Part shown: positions 3,593 to 26,029 of the stretch, piece by piece | How positions within the stretch are numbered: the first letter of the stretch is position 1 | Layout: every line of letters begins with the position of its first letter | Assembly: GCF_000142905.1 (NCBI RefSeq) | Contig: NW_013657634.1 | Span: forward strand, 268,318 to 294,372 | Source: Thecamonas trahens ATCC 50062 | Lineage: Eukaryota; Protista; Apusomonadida | Direction: 5' to 3' | Length of the DNA stretch: 26,055 nucleotides | Translations under genes and position numbers: made by a program | The notes under the pieces: model-generated | What the model was told of the DNA's origin: nothing | What the model saw: only the letters and a program-made list of their open reading frames with translations | Database searches by the model: none

Positions 3593-5988
3593 CTACAGCT
3601 CCTGCTTGCGCGCCGCCATTGCTGCCTGAGCGGCGGCGAGCGCGGCGGCATACGCGTCGTCGGCGTTGGCGCCGTCGTTGGCGGCAGATCCGGCGCTGTC
3701 TGTGGCGTCAAAGTCGTCGAGCTCACCGGCTGCCGCCGCGGCGTCGTCGCCGTCCTCATAGTCAAAGTCATCGAGCGACTCGGCGCCAAGGACGGCCGCG
3801 TCGGGAAGCGGCAGTGTTCGCTCGCGGCCGCGGGCAACCCGGTCGACAAACTGGGCAACAGCATCGGGTTTGAGGGCGCCGACGTAGACCGCGTACCGAG
3901 CCTTGGCCGGATCGAGAACAACCAGGGCCGGGAAGCCAAACTCCAAGTGCAGCGCTTCGTTGAACGACAGGTGGTGCGACTTGAGCCAGACTGGGCGAAC
4001 AGAGGTGGCCTTGGCCTTGCCCGCCGCCGCGCGGAGCAGGCCGCGGTACCGCAGGTTGTCCTGTGCAAACTCGGCACCGGGCGCAGCATCAAGGACCATC
4101 AGCAGGCACATGCCGGACGACTTGTCAAGGCAGGCCTGGGAGAGCCCGTCCTGATCGGCGGCGTAGGCGAGCGGAAGCGGCTTGGCCTTGGCCTTGGCCT
4201 TACTCTTGGTCTTGGTCTTGGCCTTAGCCTTGGTCTGCCCGGGCACCTCGCCGTTCTCGATCATCTCGACCTCGGCCAGGAGCTGGTTCATAAACGCACG
4301 CAGGTGCTTGAGCTTGTACGGGCCCTGATAAGGGATGAACCGGATCTGGGCGCGGTCGCCACCAAACGAGCCGGCGACAAGCAGGGCCGGGAATGACTCG
4401 ATCGAGTCCATGCCGGCGATGAACTGGGTGTTTTCGGCTGGAATCTGGGCAAAAAACAGCTTCCCACGGTAGTCGCGGGCGAGGATCTTGTACATGGTCG
4501 AGACGGTCTCGGCCTCGGAGAACAGAATGACCTTGGGCGTCGCCAGGTTATGCTGGAAAAACGCCGAGGTCGCCTCCTGGGTCTTGAGCTGCATCACATA
4601 GTTGGGCACGAAGCTCAACGCCCACTCGTAGAGCGGCTTGGCCTCGCGCGGCCCATCGTAGCGCACCGGCTTGCGCTTGGCGTTGAGCGGAAAAGCAACG
4701 AGTGCCGACTCGCCGGGCGCAAGGCTGTCCATGCCGTACTTGGCTGCGAGCTTGGGCTCAGCCTCGACATCAACCAGTCCAGTGTGGATCTTGGAGACTA
4801 GCTTGCGCGAGACCTTGTCCCACAGCGGCCTGCCAGCAGGCTCGCTGGTGTAGCTCGCGTGGCCCGCGTCGCGGACAAACTCGATGACCCACGCAATGTC
4901 CTCCACAAGGACTCGCTCGGTAAAAGCCGGCTTGTCGAGGATCTCGTAGCCAGGGCGGGCGGCCTCAGCCTCGGCCTTGGCGCGCGCGGCTTCGGCCTTG
5001 GCCTTGGCAGCCTCGGCCTTGGCGGCCTTGCGCGCCGCGCGCGCCGCGCGCGCCTCTTCCTTGGACAACGGCTTGACGTGTTCAACCTCGAGGCCATGCT
5101 CGGCCGCCACGTCGTCGACAAATGGTGGAGGACACCCAGAGTGATTTTGCCGTCGCGGCCGTCGCGGGCGGCGAGGACGGCGCCACTCACCGGGTCGATG
5201 GCCAGCAGGCCGACCTTTTCCAGCGGCGCACCGCTTCCGCCGTACCGGTGCCACACCGCGGCCATGGCCTCTGGCTTGGAGATACATGCCACACTCACAG
5301 CACCGCGGTGCTTGAATGCCAACATATCGAGAGCAATGAGCGGCTCGTCGCGCAGAAGAAGCACCAGCGGACCGTCAGTCGAATCCTTGGGCAGGGCGTC
5401 CTTGGCCACGACGCCGTCGGCCAGGCCACCGGCGAGCAGCGCAGCCGTATCGGCCTCAAACTGCTCGCGAAGGATGCCCGCCAGCCACTTGGCCACCAGC
5501 GCCTCGGAGAACTGTTCGGCGGTGTAGCGGACGGGCGACTTGTATGCGGCGCCTGCGGCATACGGATTGACCTTGAGCGCGGTAAAGGCATGCAAGGTCG
5601 GCAAAGTGGGAACCTTGTATGCCTTGAGCGTCTTGGCCGATGCCTCTGAATGCCGCACAATGCCGTAGCGGACTCCGATCTTGGCCATTCTTGGCGCAGC
5701 GCGGGTGAGCTGGGCCTCCAGCTGCGGACAGACCTTGCACATCTCGGCATCGCCGACATACAGAACCAGCCAGACCTCTGAATGCGGCGCCTTGATGACC
5801 ATCTCGTCAAAGTTGTCATCATTAAGCTCGACCAGTCCGCCCGCCTTGCCGGCCTTGCCCGCCTTGCCCGCCTTGCCGGCCTTGCCCTCTGCGCACTCGA
5901 CGGTCAGCACCAGGCCGACCAGGCCGACCATGGCCAGCAGGACCAGTACCCCTGCAGCCGTCCTCCGCATTGTCTGTCGTCGTGCCAT
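3593..5988 (-). CDS. ER-luminal protein of the protein disulfide isomerase family with multiple thioredoxin folds. It has a signal peptide, an acidic tail and a C-terminal KQEL. The active sites are noncanonical (CKVC and AGHA). It is read from two ORFs joined by a 1-nt frameshift.
   Basis: The N-terminus has a hydrophobic signal sequence, (GKA)5, and a thioredoxin-like domain with MCKVC (complement 5728-5739). The protein contains RDGK...FVDDVAAEHGLEVEHVKPL, which resembles the PDI b' domain end RDGK..[18 protein letters not shown]. It has VIEFVRDAGHASY...PLWDKV, resembling VEFYAPWCGHCK..PIWDKL but with both cysteines replaced. It has YDGPREAKPLYEWAL, resembling YTGPREADDIVNWL. The tail is acidic and ends in KQEL (complement 3596-3607). 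ORFs 4798-5988 and 3593-5287 are both on the minus strand in different frames. They switch at the AAA run at + 5120-5122. Confidence 0.75.
4181..4236. repeat. Hexanucleotide (CTTGGC)n repeat lying inside the PDI-like CDS, where it encodes KAKAKTKTKSKAKAKAK.
   Basis: Direct tandem repeat. It is in frame with the minus-strand ORF. Confidence 0.85.
5843..5887. repeat. 9-bp tandem repeat (GCCTTGCCS)x5 encoding (GKA)5 just after the signal peptide of the PDI-like protein.
   Basis: Perfect 9-mer periodicity, in frame. Confidence 0.85.
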
Positions 5989-6009: not shown

Positions 6010-6125
6010 GTGTGGGTGGTGGGGGTGAGGGGGTTGGGGGTGGTGGGGGTCTTCGTGAATGTTGGTGCGTTGGTGGTGAGGTCAGCAGGGACGGGGGGGG
6101 GAGGGGGAGGGGAGGGGGGGGGGGC
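6010..6125. repeat. Homopurine G-tract (GGGGAGGGG-type) in the divergent intergenic region between the PDI-like gene and ALG9.
   Basis: Runs of GGGG..GAGGGGGAGGGGAGGGGGGGGGGGG at 6088-6125 and a G-rich stretch at 6010-6050. The same motif recurs at 1-10, 18786-18825 and 25992-26029. Confidence 0.85.
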
Positions 6126-9824: not shown

Positions 9825-10110
9825 GATTAGTCGTTGCCCATGGTTAGTCGTTGCCCATGGTTAGTCGTTGCCCATGGTTAGTCGTTGCCCATCATCAGTC
9901 ATTGCCCATCATCAGTCGTTGCCCATCATCAGTCGTTGCCCATCATCAGTCCTTGCCCATCATCAGTCCTTGCCCACCATCAGTCATTGCCCATCATCAG
10001 TCGTTGCCCATCATCAGTCGTTGCCCATCATCACTCGTTGCCCATCATCACTCGTTGCCCATCATCACTCGTTGCCCATCATCAGTCGTTGCCCATCATC
10101 AGTCATTGCC
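9823..10110. repeat. 17-bp minisatellite of about 17 tandem copies (consensus CATCATCAGTCGTTGCC, with variants CATGGTTAG.., ..CACTCG.. and ..GTCCTT..).
   Basis: Exact 17-nt periodicity across 288 bp. It starts at the F-box/WD start codon and ends about 100 bp before the myosin ATG. Confidence 0.95.
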
Positions 10111-10139: not shown

Positions 10140-10200
10140 TGCCACCACCACACACTCACACACACACACATCCACAAACACACACACACACACATCCATA
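10140..10200. repeat. Imperfect (CA)n microsatellite immediately upstream of the myosin ATG.
   Basis: The sequence reads cacacactcacacacacacacatccacaaacacacacacacacacatcc. Confidence 0.85.
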
Positions 10201-10208
10201 CACATACC

Positions 10209-13200
10209 ATGTCGACCCTCCAGATAGGTGACATGTGCTGGGTGGAGAACCTGGCAGCAGGTACTAGCGGAGGAGAGCAGGCCTCCCATGGCCACCACCC
10301 GTCGCGAGTGGCAGGCAAGGTCCTCGCCGTCTCGGACTCGATGGTGACGGTGGCCCCAGAATGGGGCGAGCTCTGTCCGACCTGTGCCCTCAAGCCGGAG
10401 CATACGCCTGCTCATCGTCCGGCAAAGGTCAACGTTCCGCTGGGAAACTCGGCAGACGCGGGCCAGCTCGCCGTGAGTGTCATGGACACGTCCAACGCCG
10501 AGGGGAGGGCAGACATGATGGAGCTGGCTGATCTGGCGGTGGGCGAGCTGATGTACAACCTGAGGTTGAGGTACAAGGCCCAGCCCATGCAGTTCTACAC
10601 ATATGTCGGGGACATCCTGGTTGTCGTCAATCCCATGGCGGACATGGGCGTCTCTGGCGAGGAGACAAAGGCTACGTACGCCGGCCTGCCGTTCCGCGAT
10701 GCGAGCGCCCCGCCGCACATCTACGCCGTCGCCGAGGCTGCCCACAAGGCGCTCGCCGAGACGGCCGCTCCGCAGGTCATCGTCATCTCGGGCGAGTCTG
10801 GCGCTGGCAAGACATACGCCACCAACGACGTGCTCGACTTTCTGGCCTACCGCGGCAGCGGGTGCGACCCAGCTCCTGCTCCCGGTCCTAACGCTGGCGC
10901 TGCTCCTTCTCCGCCCGGGGCGGAGATTGTGGCCAAGATCCGGGCTATCTCGGGCGTCATTGAAGCGCTGGGCAATGCCAAGACGTCGCGGAACCACAAC
11001 TCGTCGCGGTTTGGCAAGCTCGTCAAGGTCCAGTTCGACGAGGCCGGGGCCATCGAGGGCGCCGCGCTGCAGACGTACCTACTGGAAAAGTCGCGGATTG
11101 TCGACCAACAGCCCGGTGAGCGCAACTACCACATCTTCTACCTCATGTTCCAGTTCCTCGACCGCGGTGAGCGGTCGGCGCGCGGTCTCTCGGACTCGGT
11201 CGCGGACTACCCGTACCTCGTCGGCTCGCACGGCAAGAACGCCAAGTCATGGCAGTACATGCCTAGCGATCCGTCGGCGCCGCAAGCCGGGCTCGAGCCC
11301 ATGGCCGACGCCAAGCGGTGGGAGGCGTTCATCGACGCTGTTGTCACGCTTAACCTCGAGGACGATCTCTCGTGCGTGTGGGACACGCTCGCCGCCATCC
11401 TGCACCTCGGCACGCTGACTTTTGAGGAGCACGCTGGCTCTTCGACCGGCTTTTGCACCGTCTCGCCGCCTGGAGTTGTCTCGCGCATTGCAGGCCTCCT
11501 CGCTGTCGACGCCGACGCTCTGGCCACCAATCTGCTCTCGTGCGAGGTCGTCAACATGCGCCGTGCGTACCGACCCGACAAGGCCAAGCAGACCGCCGAC
11601 GCGCTGGCCAAACTCCTTTACGCCTCGCTCTTTGACGTCATCATCGAGCACATCAACGCGTCGATCAAAACCGGCTTCACCCGCCGGTGGATCGGCGTCC
11701 TCGACATCTTTGGCTTTGAGTCGTTCCAGTCGCTGCCGGACAAGCACGGCGTGCCCGACACCGCCAACCGGTTTGAGCAGCTCTGCATCAACCTCACCAA
11801 CGAGCGCCTGCAGCGGTTCTTCTACGACCAGCTCATTCCCAAGCAGCTCGCCCACTACGCCGACCACGGGCTCGACGTCGACGCCATCGAGTACGACGAC
11901 AACACCCTCTGTGTCAACCTCATCATGGAGGGCCGCAAGTCGCTCTTTGGCGCCCTCAACAACGCCACCAAGGAGGCTGCCACCCTTCCGGCCTTCCGCA
12001 ACAACCCGGAGCTTGCCGAGCGGCGCTGGGTCGAGACCATCAAGTCGACGTACAAAGGCGGCAAAGGCCGTCTCGCGCCCTCGACCGTAGTCCGCAAGTC
12101 CTCGCCCGACGAATTTGTCGGCTGGTTTGATGACAAGCTTGACTCGCGGGCCCACACCCAGTTTGCCGTCCACCACTACGCTGAAACCGTGTGGTACACC
12201 GTCGACGGGTGCGTCGAGAAAAACGCCGACAAGATTGCCCCCGAGCTTGTCACGCTTGTCTCGTCCTCATCGGCCGCCTTTGTCGCCGGCCTTTTTGATC
12301 CGGACCGCCTCGAGCTCAACACCTCGGTTGCCGACAAGTTTGCCGAGCAGCTGCGGGCACTCGTCTCGCCGGCGTCGTGGAACGTGCCTGGCCACCCGTC
12401 GGGCATGCTTGACCTTGCAGCGGAGCCTTTTTTCGTTCGCTGCGTCAAGCCAATCTGCTCGCGGGTGCCCGGCATGCCGCGTGCGCCGCTCTCCAACCAC
12501 AAGGTGCTCGACCAGCTGCGGTCCGCCGGTATGTACGCGGTCATCCAGATGCGGCTTGCCGGCTATGCGTCTGAAGTGGACAAGGCCCAGTTTGTCGAGA
12601 CCTACACCGAGCTTGTTGACGACATGGCAGCGTTCAACTCACTCTCGCTTGACAACCAAGTCCGCTCCATTTGTGCATCCGTCGTCGCCTCTACTCAGCA
12701 CGACTTGACAAGCGAATCCGGCATGGCGCCGTACCAGATCGGCAACTCAAACCTGGTCTTCCTCAAGGACGCCATGAACTACGCCCTGCGCGACGCGCTC
12801 GCTGCGGCTCGCGCGGCGCGTGCGGCCAAGCAAGCGCTGGCGCTCTCGCATTTTGCGGCGCTTTTCTCGATGTGGAGCGTCCGCCAGTCGATGCCGCGGC
12901 TGGTGCAGGTCTACGAACAGAACCAGGAACGCCTCGAGTTTATCCGGACCCGCATCGAGGGTGGTGCAAGCGAAGCAGAGGCCAAGGCCGCATGGGACGC
13001 CGAGCTCGCCACCCGCGCCGCGGCCATGGAGGCCGAATACAAGCTCGAGCATTTTATCCCGCTGCAAAAGGCCGCCGCCGCCGAGCCAGTCGACAAGCTC
13101 GACGCCGCCATTGCCAACATGCTCAAGGACGAGCCAGCCGGTGAGGCGCGCGCGGCTCTCGAGGCTAGGCGCAAAGCGCTGAAGGCATCGGCCAAGGCGG

Positions 13201-14846
13201 TTAACGCCGCGCTTGCTGCGCTCGAGGCCGACGTGTACAACGCCGAGGCCGAGACCGCTGCCGCAGACGCCATTGCTGACCTGGACGCAGTTGTTCTCGC
13301 CGAGGAGGCCGCGTATGCAGAGGACGTCAAGCGGCGCGAGGCGGCCGCCGCTGCTGCTGCTGAAGCCGCGTACATTGCCACGCATGTGACGTCGGTGGAG
13401 ACTGCGGCGAACGCGGTGCCGTTCGCCAAGGTCAAGGCCGCACTCACGGCGTTTGGCAAGCGGCATGCCAACATCCTCGGCAAACGCGAGAACCTTGAGA
13501 GCGCACTCCATGCTCATGGGGCCTCGCTCGACGACGCTCGCGCAGCGCTTGAGGCGCGGCTGGACGAGTTGCGGGCAAGCCCGCATTCAGACGAAGTGCA
13601 AGCCGGGGTGGCGACGGCGCTATCGGCGCTCGAGGTGCTCGTTGGCGGCGTCCACGAGTTCCTGCGGCTGATGGAGGAGCGCGTGGCGATGGCAGCGGCG
13701 GCGGAGGAAGCCAAGGAGCGCAAGCGCGAGGCGCGGCGCAGAAAGCGTGAGGCGCGCGAGGCACGGAAGCGCAAGCTGCTGGAGGCGCGGCAGGCCATGC
13801 TCTCGGCGCAGGAGCGAGTGGCCGCGGAGCGGGCGGCGGAGCGCAAGCGGCAGGAGGAGGCCAAAAAGCGGGCGGTGAAGCTGCTCAAGAAGAAGCAGAA
13901 GCGGCGGCTGCGGTGGTTCGAGACAGCAAGCGTGGCCATGGACGGCCTGCGTGTCTTGTTCCACCATGCCGAGGCCACGGTGCGGTACCTTGGCCCGCTG
14001 CCGTCGGCATCGGTCAACCTCCTCACGGCGCCCTACTACATCGGGCTGGAGATGCCGTATCCGTCGGATTTGTTCAACTCGGGTGACTACGAGGGTACGC
14101 AGCTGTTCGAGTGCTCGCCGGAGCATGGCATGTTTGTGGCGCAGGACTTGGTCTCGGTCCTGGTCGCCAGCGACGAGCTTCGCGCCGGCGAGCGGCATCT
14201 GCAGGTCGGCGACCGGGTGTGGCGGCGGAACCATGTTCCGCTGCAGACCGGCGTCATCATGTACTACGGTGAGACTCACTTTGACGAGGGCCCGTTTGTG
14301 GGCATCGCCCTCGACCAGGCCGGCTCTGGCACCAACTCGGGCCGGGTCCACGGCTTCAAGTACTTTAAGTGCGCCAAGGACTCGGGCCTGTTTCTGCGGC
14401 CAGAAGAGCTCGAGCGGATAGAGCCGTGGTCGCACTCTGTCGTCAAGGAGCGAACCAACGAGTACATGATTCTTAACGACATTTATCTCGACGACGACGA
14501 GTACTCGGAGTACGATGGTGACGAGGAGGATGGGACCAGCTCGCGGGCCAGCTCACGGCCGGCGTCGGGTGACGACTCGTCGTCGGGCGCGGTCTCCGAG
14601 ACCGTTCTAGACGCCATGGATCCCGACGAGCTCTACGCGCTTGCCGGTGGCGATGCCATGCTGACCGACGGCGCGTCTGAGCCGCTCTCGTCGGGAGTGC
14701 GGCTCAAAAAGTCACGGCTCTCGCGGCGCGGATCGGGCGCCGGTCGGTCGATGTCGATGCGCAATGTCGAGACAGCGCGGAGTGGACATCTAGTGCCGCC
14801 GATGCAGCGGGCGGCGTCGTCGCGAAACCGGATGCGCCGACGGTAG
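10209..14846 (+). CDS. Myosin heavy chain (motor domain, ~600 aa coiled-coil/charged tail, C-terminal CAP-Gly domain).
   Basis: Motor motifs are the P-loop GESGAGKT (10791-10814), switch I NSSRFGKLV, switch II LDIFGFE, LRLRYKA, and an HIFY-type relay. The tail is rich in A/E/K/R heptads. The C-terminus carries a CAP-Gly signature LQVGDRVWRR..GVIMYYGETHFDEGPFVGIALDQAGSGTNSGRVHGFKYFKCAKDSGLFLRPEEL (~14196-14430). The start is taken as ATG 10209 (MSTLQIGD), after the minisatellite. The upstream part of the ORF track entry 9885-14846 is a translated repeat. Confidence 0.9.
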   Translation: MSTLQIGDMCWVENLAAGTSGGEQASHGHHPSRVAGKVLAVSDSMVTVAPEWGELCPTCALKPEHTPAHRPAKVNVPLGNSADAGQLAVSVMDTSNAEGRADMMELADLAVGELMYNLRLRYKAQPMQFYTYVGDILVVVNPMADMGVSGEETKATYAGLPFRDASAPPHIYAVAEAAHKALAETAAPQVIVISGESGAGKTYATNDVLDFLAYRGSGCDPAPAPGPNAGAAPSPPGAEIVAKIRAISGVIEALGNAKTSRNHNSSRFGKLVKVQFDEAGAIEGAALQTYLLEKSRIVDQQPGERNYHIFYLMFQFLDRGERSARGLSDSVADYPYLVGSHGKNAKSWQYMPSDPSAPQAGLEPMADAKRWEAFIDAVVTLNLEDDLSCVWDTLAAILHLGTLTFEEHAGSSTGFCTVSPPGVVSRIAGLLAVDADALATNLLSCEVVNMRRAYRPDKAKQTADALAKLLYASLFDVIIEHINASIKTGFTRRWIGVLDIFGFESFQSLPDKHGVPDTANRFEQLCINLTNERLQRFFYDQLIPKQLAHYADHGLDVDAIEYDDNTLCVNLIMEGRKSLFGALNNATKEAATLPAFRNNPELAERRWVETIKSTYKGGKGRLAPSTVVRKSSPDEFVGWFDDKLDSRAHTQFAVHHYAETVWYTVDGCVEKNADKIAPELVTLVSSSSAAFVAGLFDPDRLELNTSVADKFAEQLRALVSPASWNVPGHPSGMLDLAAEPFFVRCVKPICSRVPGMPRAPLSNHKVLDQLRSAGMYAVIQMRLAGYASEVDKAQFVETYTELVDDMAAFNSLSLDNQVRSICASVVASTQHDLTSESGMAPYQIGNSNLVFLKDAMNYALRDALAAARAARAAKQALALSHFAALFSMWSVRQSMPRLVQVYEQNQERLEFIRTRIEGGASEAEAKAAWDAELATRAAAMEAEYKLEHFIPLQKAAAAEPVDKLDAAIANMLKDEPAGEARAALEARRKALKASAKAVNAALAALEADVYNAEAETAAADAIADLDAVVLAEEAAYAEDVKRREAAAAAAAEAAYIATHVTSVETAANAVPFAKVKAALTAFGKRHANILGKRENLESALHAHGASLDDARAALEARLDELRASPHSDEVQAGVATALSALEVLVGGVHEFLRLMEERVAMAAAAEEAKERKREARRRKREAREARKRKLLEARQAMLSAQERVAAERAAERKRQEEAKKRAVKLLKKKQKRRLRWFETASVAMDGLRVLFHHAEATVRYLGPLPSASVNLLTAPYYIGLEMPYPSDLFNSGDYEGTQLFECSPEHGMFVAQDLVSVLVASDELRAGERHLQVGDRVWRRNHVPLQTGVIMYYGETHFDEGPFVGIALDQAGSGTNSGRVHGFKYFKCAKDSGLFLRPEELERIEPWSHSVVKERTNEYMILNDIYLDDDEYSEYDGDEEDGTSSRASSRPASGDDSSSGAVSETVLDAMDPDELYALAGGDAMLTDGASEPLSSGVRLKKSRLSRRGSGAGRSMSMRNVETARSGHLVPPMQRAASSRNRMRRR

Positions 14847-14849
14847 CAG

Positions 14850-17602
14850 TTAGGGCGTAAAACAGGTCTCCAGATGAAAGTGGTAGTCGACGAGCGACGT
14901 GGCCGAGACGGCAGTGGTGGCGGCGTAGACGGCCGAGGCGAGCGAGGAGTTACCAGAGAAGAAAACGCCGACAGCGGCGTTGGGCCGGGCGAGAAGGCCC
15001 GAGTCGGAGACCACATCCTCGGCGTCGAGGTAGGAAAAAGCCGGGCCATGTCGGGCCGACCGCGGATGACGGTAAAAGGGAGCGCAAGAAAGACGTCGCG
15101 GGTGACAAAGAGGCGAACGTCGAGGGTGAGATCAGGCTCGTGGATAGAGGTGTAGAACTGGGACTCGAGCACCTCGAGCACGTCCTGGAACCAACGGAAC
15201 GAGTCGAGGTCGCGGCAGACCCACCAAAAGTGGAGATGCTTGAGTGGGAGAGCGAGACCGTGCTGGAGCCGGAAAATGATGTCGGAGAGGACGGCGGCGT
15301 AGGGAGTGACCCCGATGCCGGACGCGATGAGGACGGCGCGGTGGTAGGAGAGATACGGGTGCGGGTCCGAGCCAAACGGGCCCGCGACGTAGAGCCGGAG
15401 CGATGACGCCGGTGACGTCGGGTCCTCGATGCCGGACGCGGAGGACTCGGCGAGCGCGTAGACCTGACGGGTCCAAGAGTCGCGGGCGCCGACAGCCTTA
15501 AAATACACGTGCACGTGCTCCATAAGCGGCGAGGAGGCGACCGAGAACGGATGCCACTGCAGCTTGGAAATGCTTGGTAGGTGGAGGTGGACGTAGTCGC
15601 CGAGGGCGAGGGCGCGCGTCATGCGCGCCGACTTGACAAAGGCAACATGGACGACCGATCCCGGGAGCGCGTCGAGCGCGACAATGCGGGCGTCGGCGAG
15701 CGCGTGTGGCGCCGAGATGCCGCGCGCAATGAGGTAGAGAAGATAGCCCGGTGCGATGTAGTAGAGGGTACGGAGGGTGGTGGGATGCGCGACGAGGAGG
15801 AGCGGGAGGACGAGCGCGAGCTGATGTGGGTAGTAAAAGACCTCAAAGGCGATGCGGCGGATCTTCGGGTGTGCAAGCGGGACAATGGCGAGCATCAGAA
15901 GGAGGAGAAGGATGCCGGAGAGGCCGAGCCAGGTCGAGAAGACAATGGTGAGCGGCGAGTTGTGGGTGCGAAAGGCGGCGAGCGGGGTGCCCGGCGCAAA
16001 GGCCAGGTCGCGATCAGCCTGCGATGCAGCGGCAGTGCGAAAGGCGTTGACAACGTGAGCAGCGGTGTGGCCGAGAGCGCAGGCAAAGGTGGCCACTCCG
16101 CCGAGCCGATGGAAGAGCATCATGTGCTCCTGTGAGGGCCGGAGCCAGAGCGTGGCGGAGCGAGGCATGCGCGGCAGAAAGACTCGAACGACGGTGGTGT
16201 AGGTGGCGAGGCAGACCGGGAGAAAGAGAAACGCGACGCCGACGCGGATACCCGCGGCAAAGACCTTGGCGGCAACGAGCGAGGCACCAAGAATGCGGTG
16301 TGCTGCGTAGGAGCGGGCGATACGCGCGATGTAGACTGACTCGAGGGTGACAGCAAGGCAGATGAGGGCAAGCCAGAGGCAAAACGCTGGGTCGAGCTTG
16401 GCATGCATGCGGGCGGTGGAAGCGGCGGCGGCGACCGAGGCCCGGAGCGATGCGAGGTGCGAGGTCGCCGGCGCCGCGCTGGATGCCGAGCCGGAGATGC
16501 CGTAAGAGGCGAGTCGGGCGAGAACGCCTGCGGGCAGGTCTGTGGCAGTGGCGAGTGAGCTCCACTGAGCCGGCTCGAGGGCGAGAACGTCGCCGACGGT
16601 GGCGAGCTCCTGGAGCGCAAACTGTGCCATCCAGAGTTTCGCGCGCTCACGGCCGACGTTGGGTGAGAGCTTGAGATCCTCGGCGACAGCGAGGAGGGCG
16701 GCCAGAAGCGGTGCGTCTGGTGAGAAGGCGACTGTCGAGTATGTGCGGTGGGTTGTGAGCCAGGATCGCCACTGGCGAGTGGTGGGTGTAGCGTGGATGT
16801 GGAGGGTGAGCTCGGTGGCATGCTCGAGCTCGCCCCAGGTAAAGGCGGAGATGAAGCGCGGCCAGTCAAGGACGATGCTGCCGACCGGACGGGTCGGCGA
16901 GGCCGGCGACGAAAACGAGATGGCGCGCGAGCGCGAGAGGCTCGGGGAGAAGGCCTCGTTGTCGGCGGCGACCGAGGAGGCGAGCCACGAGCTGTGGATC
17001 TCGGCGACGAGATCGTCGCCAGCGAGGGCAGCGCCGCCGGGAGCGGCAAGAATGAGATGCGGGATGTTGCAGAGGGTGGCGAGGGAGAGCTCAGCGCCGG
17101 CTGTGGTGGAGCCGGCTGCCATGAGGAAGACAAACATGAGGCGGAGCTTCTGTGGCGCCTCGCCAGCAAAGGCCGAGGCAAAAGCGAGAAACTCAAGGAG
17201 TGGGACGGAGGGAGCGCGGGACGAGAGGCGCTTCTTCTTGGAGGGCGGTGGCGGGCGAGCGAGAATGGCGAAGAGGAGATCGACGGTGGAGGAGGCCGCA
17301 TCCCAGCCCGTCAGTCGGGCAAAGGCACGGCGGGAGAGGCGGTAGGTGAGGTTCGATGCGATGGCAAAGACGTGGGCCCAGCGCTTGATGAGCGAGTCGG
17401 GGCGGAAGACCCAGGCAGTGGCGACGCGAGTCATACCGCGGCCAAAGCGGAGGATGCGGCGACGCATGCCGGTGATAGGACAGACGCCCGTGGAGACGCC
17501 GAGCATGGCCTTTGCCGACTCGAGGGCGATGGATGCGTTCTGGAGGCTCCGCCAGTAGCTCGCAGCCGAGGCATCAAGTAGAGGCCTCTGCGCCGTGAGC
17601 AT
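14850..17602 (-). CDS. NADPH oxidase / ferric reductase (NOX/FRE) family protein with a ~400-aa N-terminal extension of unknown function. The C-terminal ~60 aa are read in a -1 frame relative to the long ORF.
   Basis: A TM region carries heme-ligand histidines (HRLGG..GHTAAHVVN, YYPHQLAL). FAD-binding HPFS is at about + 15545-15560. NADPH-binding GIGVTPY is at about + 15291-15311, with CRDLDSF. GRPDMARLF resembles NOX GRPNWDNEF. In the other frame, AAVGVFFSGNSSLASAV...DYHFHLETCFTP-stop matches the NOX2 C-terminus [15 protein letters not shown]...HFIFNKENF with the same spacing. The frames switch at the A5 run at + 15035-15039. The stop (TAA, complement 14850-14852) lies 3 bp from the myosin stop. 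Confidence 0.85.
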
Positions 17603-18785: not shown

Positions 18786-18825
18786 GGGGGGGGGAGGGGG
18801 GGGGGGGGGGGGGGGTGGACTCATG
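18786..18825. repeat. Poly-G / GGGAGG homopurine tract.
   Basis: The sequence is gggaggggggggggagggggggggggggggggggggtgg, followed at 18837-18905 by a (GGTGAT/GGTGGT)n microsatellite. Confidence 0.9.
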
Positions 18826-21621: not shown

Positions 21622-24600
21622 ATGGACAGGAGCCGAGACAGGGAGGGGGGGAGCAAAGGGGAGGGGGGTACCATGTCCATGAACAAAGACGGGATGGGCA
21701 TGGGCATGGGCGTGGAGGCGGACATGGACATGGCCACGGAGGCGGGCGTGGACGTGGGCGCGGACATAGGCTTGGACACGGGCATCGTAACGGGCACGGA
21801 GGCTGGCATTGTCAGGGGCGCAGACACGGGCATGGATGTGGCTCTCACGCCGCCGACTGTGGACCACGTCCAGGCAACAGGTCGGGCCCTGGTCGATGTG
21901 GTTAAGCAACAGGCAGAGGAGATCAAGGTGCTCAAGGCTCAACTGGATGGTGCCAACCGGCAGCTAGTGTTGGCGGAGGAGGAGAAAGGCGCTGTCAAGC
22001 AGCTGCTCGTCAAGACGGAAGTCAACTTGGCCAACCAGGTCGCGGCCAGAAAGACGCTGGCCAAAAGAGTTGTCGCCGTCTTGGATGCTCTCCGGACTGG
22101 CGTTCTTGATCTGGCACATGTCACCGCGGCGCTGATGGATGGTTGCTCTCCTGAGACTGATGAGACTGTGTCGGGGGAAGACATTGTCGAGCCCGTTGCC
22201 GAGAATCGGCCGCAGATGCGTAAGTGGCGGCAGGGCACGTCAGGATTCAAGACCTCGCCGGCACTGGAGAAGCTCAAGGCACGTCAAGAAGCGATGCGTA
22301 AGCAGCGCGCGGCGGCGGCAGCAGCCGCTGACGCCGACGCCGACGCCGACGATGGCGACGGCGATGGCGATAGCTCCGACTCTTATGGTTCGGTTGTCGA
22401 GCACGACGATGAGCCTGCAGCCGAGGTCAAGACCGAGGCTCGGCCACAGATGCGCAAGTGGCGGCAGGGCACGTCAGGATTCAAGACCTCGCCGGCACTG
22501 GAGAAGCTCAAGGCACGTCAAGAAGCGATGCGTAAGCAACGCGCGGCGGCGGCTGCTGCCGCCGCCGACGCCGACGCCGACGCCGACGATGGCGACGGCG
22601 ATGGCGATAGCTCCGACTCTTATGGTTCGGTTGTCGAGCACGACGATGAGCCTGCAGCCGAGGTCAAGGCCGAAGCTCGGCCACAGATGCGCAAGTGGCG
22701 GCAGGGCACGTCAGGATTCAAGACCTCGCCGGCACTGGAGAAGCTCAAGGCACGTCAAGAAGCGATGCGTAAGCAACGCGCGGCGGCGGCTGCTGCCGCC
22801 GCCGACGCCGACGCCGACGCCGACGATGGCGACGGCGATGGCGATAGCTCCGACTCTTATGGTTCGGTTGTCGAGCACGACGATGAGCCTGCAGTCGAGG
22901 TCAAGGCCGAAGCTCGGCCACAGATGCGCAAGTGGCGGCAGGGCACGTCAGGATTCAAGACCTCGCCGGCACTGGAGAAGCTCAAGGCACGTCAAGAAGC
23001 GATGCGTAAGCAACGCGCGGCGGCGGCTGCCGCCGCTGACGCCGACGCCGACGCCGACGATGGCGACGGCGATGGCGATAGCTCCGACTCTTATGGTTCG
23101 GTTGTCGAGCACGACGACGGCTCCGAGTCAGCCGACTCGGTTGTCGAGCACGACGACAAGCCTGTTGGCGAGACCCGCTCATGGCGTGCAGGCTTCAACA
23201 CGTCGCCAGCACTCGAGCGGCTGACCGAGACACGGAGCGCCGCTGCGGGCAGAGTACACCCTGCGGCCAACGCCGGAGGCACTGACGATGCTGCAAAGCC
23301 GGTCGAGCGCCCGCAGATGCGCAAGTGGCGCCAAGGCACCACAGGATTCAAGACCTCGCCGGCGCTAGGGAAGCTCAAGGCGCGGCAGGAGGCTATGCGC
23401 AAGCAGCGCGCAGCTGCGGCTGTGGCTGCGACTACGGCTGCTGTCGCTGACGCGGACGCTAGTGATGACTCGGACTCGTGTGGCTCGGTTGTCGAGCGCA
23501 GCTCCGAGGGCTCGAGCTCGGCGGGCTCGATGGTGGACAACGGCTCGCCAGCGCCGCGCGAGATCCTCGGTCTTCCAGCCGAGTCCCCGCCGAACCGCCG
23601 CGCCGGGCGGCCCGAGTCGCTGCGCGACCGACGCCTGCGGCTGCGCAACACCCGGCGGGCGACGTCGTCGGACCACACCATGGACGCGGCCATGCGCGCC
23701 GCCATGCTCCGCGCCGGCCGCACCATGTCGGCGTCGGCCGCCGAAGAGCGGTTCGAGGAGCAGCAGAGCCAGTCCGAGCTCGAGGCTGCAGCCAACGCTG
23801 CGCACAATGAGGCGAACTCGACAACGCTCTACGACAGCAGCAGCGACGGTGATGACGATGTCATCGTCGTCAATGCAGCTACGAGTGGCATCGCCAGAGG
23901 CCACTCCTGGCTCGACGTCGAGCGCCCGCGCGGCGAGGCCATCGACTTTGAGCACAAGCCCAATGCCCGCGGCCTTAACGTCTCGTTCTCGTCGAACCTC
24001 TCCCACATCTTCGGCGAGACGTCATCCGACGACGACGACGATGTACCCGACGCCAGCGCCACCACTGCCGAGCTCTTGCGGCAGCTGGTCGAGGCTCGCA
24101 AGGAAAACATTGATCTCGCGCGAACGGTCTCTGAGCTCACGCTCGAGGTGAGCCGGCTGACGCAGTCACTCACCGCAGCCTCGGCGGCGAAAGCGTCATT
24201 GGCTGCGGGCGCGGGCCTCATAGTTGCAGGCGTGCAGACCGAGCCGCGGATTGTGGACAACGTGGCGGTGCAGACGCTCCCGCCTGACGTCGCCCATGTG
24301 AGTGTGCAGACCGAGGTGGAACGCGACGGCGGGCCGGTGAGTGCGGCTGGAGCCAGCAACGTCAAGCTCGACGAGCTCTCGTCGCAGTTGCATCTGGCGC
24401 AAGCGCAGAACGAGGAGCTGATGCGGATGCTGCGGTCGCCGTCGCTCTCGCTCTCGCCGATGCCGCGGTCCCCGTCGGCAGCGTCGCCTCTGACGCCTGT
24501 GACGGCGCGGGCGCGGTCCTCGTTCTCGCGCTCGCCGTCGCTCACGGGATCATCGCCGGTCCCGCTCGACTCGCCGGCGCGGGCACGGGCGCGGGCAGCG

Positions 24601-24666
24601 TTTGAGCGGCGGCTGGCGCGGACAGCGCGGTACGTCCACCAGCAGGAACTCCGACCTCTATCGTAA
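21622..24666 (+). CDS. Novel low-complexity coiled-coil protein with four near-identical 79-aa tandem repeats (RPQMRKWRQGTSGFKTSPALEKLKARQEAMRKQRAAAAAA-DADADADDGDGDGDSSDSYGSVVEHDDEPAAEVKAEA) and a fifth degenerate copy.
   Basis: A 1014-codon ORF. It carries in-frame 237-bp units at 22207, 22441, 22678 and 22915, with more than 97% nucleotide identity. A diverged copy sits at about 23311-23500. The N-terminus is a degenerate 12-nt periodic G/D/M-rich region (21706-21850). Heptad coiled-coil segments flank the repeats. The C-terminus is S/P/R-rich. I recognise no conserved domain. The start codon is uncertain. Confidence 0.6.
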   Translation: MDRSRDREGGSKGEGGTMSMNKDGMGMGMGVEADMDMATEAGVDVGADIGLDTGIVTGTEAGIVRGADTGMDVALTPPTVDHVQATGRALVDVVKQQAEEIKVLKAQLDGANRQLVLAEEEKGAVKQLLVKTEVNLANQVAARKTLAKRVVAVLDALRTGVLDLAHVTAALMDGCSPETDETVSGEDIVEPVAENRPQMRKWRQGTSGFKTSPALEKLKARQEAMRKQRAAAAAAADADADADDGDGDGDSSDSYGSVVEHDDEPAAEVKTEARPQMRKWRQGTSGFKTSPALEKLKARQEAMRKQRAAAAAAAADADADADDGDGDGDSSDSYGSVVEHDDEPAAEVKAEARPQMRKWRQGTSGFKTSPALEKLKARQEAMRKQRAAAAAAAADADADADDGDGDGDSSDSYGSVVEHDDEPAVEVKAEARPQMRKWRQGTSGFKTSPALEKLKARQEAMRKQRAAAAAAADADADADDGDGDGDSSDSYGSVVEHDDGSESADSVVEHDDKPVGETRSWRAGFNTSPALERLTETRSAAAGRVHPAANAGGTDDAAKPVERPQMRKWRQGTTGFKTSPALGKLKARQEAMRKQRAAAAVAATTAAVADADASDDSDSCGSVVERSSEGSSSAGSMVDNGSPAPREILGLPAESPPNRRAGRPESLRDRRLRLRNTRRATSSDHTMDAAMRAAMLRAGRTMSASAAEERFEEQQSQSELEAAANAAHNEANSTTLYDSSSDGDDDVIVVNAATSGIARGHSWLDVERPRGEAIDFEHKPNARGLNVSFSSNLSHIFGETSSDDDDDVPDASATTAELLRQLVEARKENIDLARTVSELTLEVSRLTQSLTAASAAKASLAAGAGLIVAGVQTEPRIVDNVAVQTLPPDVAHVSVQTEVERDGGPVSAAGASNVKLDELSSQLHLAQAQNEELMRMLRSPSLSLSPMPRSPSAASPLTPVTARARSSFSRSPSLTGSSPVPLDSPARARARAAFERRLARTARYVHQQELRPLS
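22207..23118 (+). repeat. Coding minisatellite: 4 x ~237-bp near-identical tandem units inside the CDS 21622-24666.
   Basis: Units 2 and 3 differ by about 1 nt (gcagccgag versus gcagtcgag). Unit 1 is 3 nt shorter. Confidence 0.95.
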
Positions 24667-25707: not shown

Positions 25708-25869
25708 CTACATATGGATGTGGATGCAAGTGAGTGGGTGTGGTCAATGACCTTGGTGGGGGGAGGGGAGGGCGGAGGAGGGCAGTTTGCGGAGATGATG
25801 GCCATCTCGGCTCATCCCAGACGGCAAGGGCCAGGGCATGGGTGGGATGAGGGGCAGGGCAGTGCGTAC
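25708..25869 (-). other. Spliceosomal intron (162 nt, phase 1) in the La gene. Donor GTACGC, acceptor TATGTAG.
   Basis: On the minus strand the junction reads gac ggc t|GTACGC ... tatgtag|tt gtt cct. Removing the intron deletes an in-frame P/H-rich low-complexity insert (CTHCPAPHPTH...HLHPHPY) from the middle of the conserved La motif. It creates codon TTT (F), which aligns with the W of the La consensus. The intron is C-rich on the transcribed strand. Confidence 0.8.
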
Positions 25870-25991: not shown

Positions 25992-26029
25992 GTTGGGAGG
26001 GGGAGGGGGAGGGGAGGGGGGGGGGGGGT
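25992..26029. repeat. Homopurine GGGAGGGGGAGGGG...G17 tract abutting the La start codon.
   Basis: The sequence is ggttgggagggggagggggaggggagggggggggggggggg. Confidence 0.9.

Follow-up and report, generated by a model that had tools for sequence, protein, structure and literature searches.

Where does the NADPH oxidase gene of this locus end, and why does its reading frame break before the end is reached? The stretch of Thecamonas trahens ATCC 50062 DNA analysed here (26,055 nucleotides (nt), contig NW_013657634.1, positions 268,318 to 294,372; called the window below) carries a minus-strand open reading frame (ORF) of 989 amino acids (aa) at 14633-17602, the first-frame part of which encodes a NOX-type NADPH oxidase. 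The ORF reads ..FTVIRGRPDMARLF and then continues with PTSTPRMW.., a spurious stretch rich in R, P and S (14633-15034, minus strand) that below position 14847 is antisense to the coding sequence of a convergent myosin gene, with which it overlaps for about 214 nt. The initial annotation had described this course, through GRPDMARLF and into an antisense overrun, and its coordinates hold. It had also proposed that the frame breaks at an A5 run at plus-strand positions 15035-15039, which is T5 on the coding strand. We find that the deposited sequence is, as judged from its frames and its homologues, one base too short at this run or within a few bases of it. The public annotation bridges the break with a 53-nt intron that is almost certainly spurious and would in fact be coding sequence.

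The codon usage of the region locates the break. Read in the −1 frame from the A5 run, the minus strand gives SYLDAEDVVSDSGLLARPNAAVGVFFSGNSSLASAVYAATTAVSATSLVDYHFHLETCFTP, followed by TAA. This frame covers 14853-15034 and supplies the last 61 residues of the protein (SYLDAEDVV..GVFFSGN..DYHFHLETCFTP). The true stop is the TAA at the complement of 14850-14852; it can be read directly, and the public protein shares the same end, ..ETCFTP. The first frame, at 15035-17602, encodes residues 1-856, ends with ..LPFTVIRGRPDMARLF and has a positive codon bias throughout. With codon frequencies compiled from those parts of the NOX and myosin genes that are not in dispute, we obtained codon log-odds over 14853-15034 of +40.8 bits for the −1 frame, −29.8 bits for the ORF frame and −22.0 bits for the third frame. 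Past the true stop, the ORF tail scored −5.2 bits. In a 12-codon sliding window the coding signal passed from one frame to the other between 15050 and 15038, with no stretch lacking a signal, which agrees with a break at the A5 run. This run is the sole homopolymer of at least 5 nt in the 2753-nt NOX gene, and a randomly placed break would fall within a few bases of it well under 1% of the time. The post-shift frame contains no further lesion and has full codon bias. Adding one T gives ..CTT TTT TCC TAC.., with the protein reading ..RLF-SYLDAE.. and a total length of 917 aa; the missing base may instead be a C at the adjacent CC, which would give RLFPYLDAE. We considered the 989-aa ORF as the true product and rejected it because its tail has negative codon bias and no homology.

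The −1 frame also carries the expected homology. As a family reference we built a hidden Markov model (HMM) on 13 NOX C-termini, all of them from proteins encoded outside the window. The 61-residue post-shift peptide alone matched it with 24.8 bits (E 7e-10, one comparison), the best of 500 shuffled versions reached 3.1 bits, and the ORF-frame tail gave no match to this HMM. The family HMM was used instead of a phmmer search of the PDB because the last 91 residues are too short and divergent a segment for phmmer; searched alone against the PDB, they gave chance matches only (E of at least 0.28). In BLASTP against a second T. trahens NOX, the paralogue P0002, the corrected C-terminus aligned to its end with 45.1 bits, whereas with the uncorrected tail the score was 32.7 bits and the alignment faded past GRP. 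Alignment to NOX C-termini, which the initial annotation had matched by motif order and spacing, showed that GRP, VF.G, E and F are invariant in 17 aligned sequences (the residues after GRP being V245, F246, G249, E277 and F280). The series GRP .. GVFFSG .. E..F of the NOX C-terminus is present only when the one-base correction is made. These comparisons identify the peptide predicted in the −1 frame as the authentic C-terminus of the NOX protein.

An orthologue from outside the strain leads to the same place. An exhaustive HMMER search recovered P0006, a protein of 951 aa on a Tara Oceans metagenome scaffold, which is about 50% identical and aligns to query residues 3-512 of 514. Its gene is a single uninterrupted genomic ORF, the end of which reads ..DLPFTVIRGRPDFHRILGTIAEEVMDPREEKAGVFFSGNGRIALAVYQAVKAWDSRFEYLHELCFT. 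Across the last 183 residues P0006 is 58% identical to the corrected window protein: LPFTVIRGRPD is identical before the break, and GVFFSGN is identical after it, together with matches at AE.V, A.AVY and E.CFT. The alignment contains one single-residue gap and is unbroken over RLF|SYLDAE. Because it is continuous here, the missing base lies between the Arg and Tyr codons, either within T5 or at the neighbouring CC.

The corrected protein is predicted to have the NOX dehydrogenase-domain fold. We modelled the corrected dehydrogenase domain (282 aa) with AlphaFold2 from a 17-sequence alignment and obtained a mean predicted local distance difference test score (pLDDT) of 88.5 and a predicted template modelling score (pTM) of 0.85. 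The model places a strand at 209-212, then GRP, then a confident helix at 217-229 that runs across the junction; a strand at 242-248 (GVFF), a helix at 251-267 and a strand at 271-276 follow. In a Foldseek search of the PDB the top match was human NOX2 (8gz3_B, E 9e-22, TM 0.76, 279 alignment columns for the 282-aa model), and the next matches were cyanobacterial NOX5 dehydrogenase domains (csNOX5, TM on target 0.86) and DUOX1.

How, then, does the public gene model reach the correct stop? The public T. trahens ‘NADPH oxidase’ (P0001; XP_013754789.1 / KNC53122.1 / A0A0L0DLE6, 899 aa) is matched at 100% by the first frame (15035-17602). The corrected sequence is 96% identical to it at 100% query coverage, and the difference consists of 18 residues that are spliced out of the public protein. 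A comparison of that protein with the window places the ‘intron’ at 15018-15070 on the minus strand: 53 nt, GTCATC..GCCGAG, so that ..FLALPFT is fused straight to DVVSDSG... This bridging intron was absent from the initial annotation. The removed segment codes for VIRGRPDMARLF/SYLDAE, GRP included, and we judge the intron to be spurious because it would remove GRP, which does not vary among the 17 NOX sequences aligned.

We consider it very improbable that 15018-15070 is a genuine spliceosomal intron and the 899-aa protein the real product. The segment does begin with GT and end with AG, its length of 3n+2 mends the frame, and the splice is contained in the deposited RefSeq/GenBank model. Against this, splicing would cost the protein not only GRP but also a strand and a helix of the NADPH-binding domain. 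VIRGRPD, encoded inside the segment, is identical in the orthologue P0006, and every base of the ‘donor’ GTCATCCGCGG recurs, as coding DNA, in the Tara ORF, which has no intron. Both the donor (GTCATC) and the acceptor (GACGCCGAG, without a pyrimidine tract) are weak, the segment has a GC content of 68%, and the coding potential shows no dip across it. The one clear intron of the window, in a La gene, is by comparison 162 nt long and C/T-rich. Other frame-restoring introns near the break (29-101 nt) were tried and rejected, as each deletes conserved residues. A survey of introns found that an unusually large proportion of those annotated in T. trahens are non-canonical and suggested poor annotation as a possible cause (PMC11347168). 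The NOX pseudo-intron could not be flagged in that way because it uses a canonical GT..AG pair.

What caused the break is a separate question, which the initial annotation had left open among an assembly error, a mutation and a slippage site. We now rank an assembly error first. We infer that the missing base is likely a homopolymer undercall in the sequencing or assembly of the T. trahens ATCC 50062 draft genome and that the gene is otherwise intact. The assembly would have dropped one base in, or right beside, the T5 run. A 917-aa enzyme ending ..GRPDMARLFSYLDAEDVV..GVFFSGN..YHFHLETCFTP would be the product of the real gene; the naive ORF of the deposited sequence would overrun as nonsense into the myosin antisense strand, and the public annotation would have compensated with a false intron at the cost of the conserved GRP strand and the helix. 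We prefer an undercall because the homopolymer location, the single lesion, the intact codon bias and motifs downstream and the compensating pseudo-intron all fit it. A possible second one-base break, in a PDI-like gene 10 kb away, was counted in its favour as well. The case resembles other homopolymer indels masked by pseudo-introns in that one base is missing in the longest homopolymer of the gene, and in that a short GT..AG ‘intron’ of 3n+2 length covers the break and takes conserved coding sequence out of the gene model.

Several points weigh against an undercall. In contrast to those other masked indels, the error is here a probable one, and the base may have been lost by a real mutation. 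A literature search for the sequencing technology of the T. trahens assembly, and for reports of errors in it, gave nothing usable beyond the remark on non-canonical introns; the assembly may be 454-based. The myosin gene keeps its frame through other runs of A5, T5 and T6, so that errors of this kind are not systematic. A 92-nt GTGAGT..AG intron could also account for the second frame break of the window. Finally, because the paralogue P0002 exists, loss of this NOX copy would be tolerable. Searches for an independent copy of the locus were negative: exact-protein look-ups with P0001, the 989-aa ORF and P0002 found none on record, a metagenome scan with an exact DNA pattern carrying T5 or T6 gave no match, and an alignment-based metagenome search for the locus gave 204 pattern hits, none of which was confirmed.

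Of the explanations in which the A5 run is real, a recent one-base deletion is the more plausible, although we regard it as unlikely. Replication slippage in T5 would have produced either a young pseudogene or a loss-of-function allele acquired in culture by ATCC 50062. Homopolymers are natural slippage hotspots too, the deposited sequence does contain A5, and P0002 (AMSG_11548), encoded in the same genome, could cover the function. However, 917 codons contain no second lesion, and codon bias (the +40.8 bits given above) and invariant motifs are intact downstream, so that the gene could have been inactivated only very recently. Pseudogenes with a single lesion are also expected to be far rarer than homopolymer errors in draft genomes. 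In all but these base rates, a recent mutation agrees with the observations as well as an undercall does. Another explanation of this kind is that A5/U5 is a recoding site, where a fraction of the products would gain the missing base, either because tRNA-Phe slips by −1 on U_UUU in the ribosome or through slippage during transcription; this we hold to be highly improbable. The shift needed is indeed −1, and re-pairing in the P site on U UUU is possible. Yet the zero frame, CGG CUU UUU CCU, contains no X_XXY_YYZ heptamer, so that only single-tRNA re-pairing on U_UUU could take place. No stable RNA structure is predicted downstream (minimum free energy −36.8 against −35.2 +/- 3.0 for shuffles, z = −0.53), the Tara orthologue P0006 is a single ORF without a shift here, and the zero-frame product would be non-functional nonsense. 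Five U's are, moreover, short for transcriptional slippage. The predicted peptides differ: ..DMARLFSYLDAEDVV.. if the site is recoded, and ..DMARLFPTSTPR.. for the zero-frame product, which would be truncated and non-functional. We give similarly little credence to the wider proposal that A5 is real and a functional NOX is made by −1 slippage on U5, with the break of the PDI-like gene at CAU UUG as a possible second example.

The PDI-like gene (3593-5988, minus strand) is split into two overlapping ORFs, with the break near 5120-5122. With one base added at an A3 run, the gene encodes 798 aa that comprise a signal peptide, a thioredoxin domain with CKVC, a C-terminal domain like that of PDIA6 and, at the very end, KQEL; the 92-nt intron mentioned above, from 5190 to 5099, would restore the frame equally. 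In this gene the window may contain a second error of one base. Searches for homologues of the gene gave no match, the first of them probably having been swamped by low-complexity words.

By its predicted domains and modelled fold, the minus-strand gene itself is an ordinary NOX-type NADPH oxidase that is already in the databases. The Ferric_reduct transmembrane (TM) domain lies at about 15794-16183 (PF01794, 1.3e-11), FAD_binding_8 at about 15368-15688 (PF08022, 8.4e-12) and NAD_binding_6 from about 15337, all three as Pfam matches on the minus strand. For the hemes there are two bis-histidine sites: the Hx13H of TM3 is HRLGGVATFACALGH at residue 497, and the Hx12H of TM5 is HQLALVLPLLLVAH at residue 592. 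An Hx12H spacing is usual in NOX proteins, in contrast to FRE. The HPF[ST] motif of the FAD domain is present in WHPFSVASSP, which aligns with WHPFT of NOX2, the GIGVTP NADPH motif is located in the first frame, and a PDB sequence search with the NOX ORF returned NOX2, NOX5 and DUOX1.

The window protein is like the members of its family (human NOX2/gp91phox, NOX5, DUOX and the Cylindrospermum NOX5) in its ferric-reductase domain of six TM segments, where the heme ligands are spaced Hx13H and Hx12H, in the HPFS, GIGVTP, GRP and GVFF.G motifs and in its terminal aromatic residue. The model of its dehydrogenase domain superposes on 8gz3_B, 5o0x and 7d3e. It differs from them in three respects. 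It carries an N-terminal extension of about 400 aa (residues 1-403; 16394-17602, minus strand) in which no Pfam domain is found and which is common to the Tara and Logan homologues; it has GVFFSGN where the family has GVF(F/L)CGP, with S for C and N for P; and its C-terminus, ..E(T/L)CFT(P), runs one or two residues past the terminal Phe, as does that of the Tara orthologue. In one homologue, P0007, the N-terminal extension gives a faint hint of an EF-hand (E 0.23) that is seen only there; its counterpart in T. trahens looks degenerate. In the public model of the paralogue P0002, which lies outside the window, a ZIP transporter domain (PF02535) is fused with a NOX. The NOX part has a normal end, ..YHEESFAP, and then reads on. 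P0002 may be a fusion of gene models on a 6-kb contig.

The convergent myosin gene occupies 10209-14846 on the plus strand as a single ORF in one frame, with codon bias that is positive to about 14750. It encodes a Myosin_head motor (10512-12755, Pfam 1.6e-127) and, in the C-terminal tail, a CAP-Gly domain in two stretches (14205-14408, Pfam CAP_GLY 1e-27); a CAP-Gly tail on a myosin is an uncommon architecture. Its TAG stop at 14844-14846 is separated from the NOX TAA by CAG (14847-14849) only, exactly as the initial annotation had it. From this geometry we infer that the 3' untranslated regions of the two genes would overlap. The window contains four such convergent pairs, with stop-to-stop distances of 69 nt (3523/3593), 17 nt (8379/8397), 3 nt (14846/14850) and 49 nt (24666/24716), a frequency that the initial annotation had not described. 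With four tight pairs in 26 kb, the 3-nt gap between NOX and myosin is therefore the local norm and not special. The arrangement is like that of compact protist genomes with overlapping convergent 3' ends; the overlap is here a predicted one. Neighbouring genes of the window mostly alternate in orientation.

Other features of the window lie outside these genes. The La-protein gene intron (25708-25869, minus strand) has GTACGC..TGTAG ends. As this intron is in frame and free of stops, an ORF called mechanically continues across it, and the La motif is interrupted (..NSDG|FVPLEEL..). Long G/C homopolymers, up to G20, cluster upstream of gene starts (814-872, 6093-6124, 18786-18815 and 26016-26028), among them a C13 directly upstream of the La ATG and a G9 and a G11 between the starts of the PDI-like gene and an ALG9 gene. 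The interval from the start of an F-box/WD40 gene to the ATG of the myosin gene (10209) contains 16.6 copies of a 17-nt repeat unit (AGTCGTTGCCCATCATC; 9829-10110, 95% identity) and, after them, a (CA)23 microsatellite (10149-10194). A 237-nt tandem repeat at 22206-23117 on the plus strand (3.9 copies, 97% identical, 79 aa per unit) lies in a 1014-aa ORF (21622-24666) that has no significant Pfam domain.

In sum, the result is useful as the correction of a public protein; its value is mainly practical, and it is not biologically surprising. XP_013754789.1 / A0A0L0DLE6 is short by 18 residues, GRP among them, and the corrected 917-aa sequence is its proper replacement. As Thecamonas is the reference apusomonad, the faulty 899-aa protein is likely to enter surveys of NOX evolution. 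The locus also provides a concrete example of frame-restoring pseudo-introns, which may add to the odd intron statistics of T. trahens (PMC11347168), and the gaps between convergent stops document very tight packing of convergent genes in this genome. If the A5 run is real, the locus would instead be a NOX pseudogene of very recent origin or a site of recoding, and slippage on both U5 and CAU UUG, if true, would point to tolerance of U-run recoding in an apusomonad.

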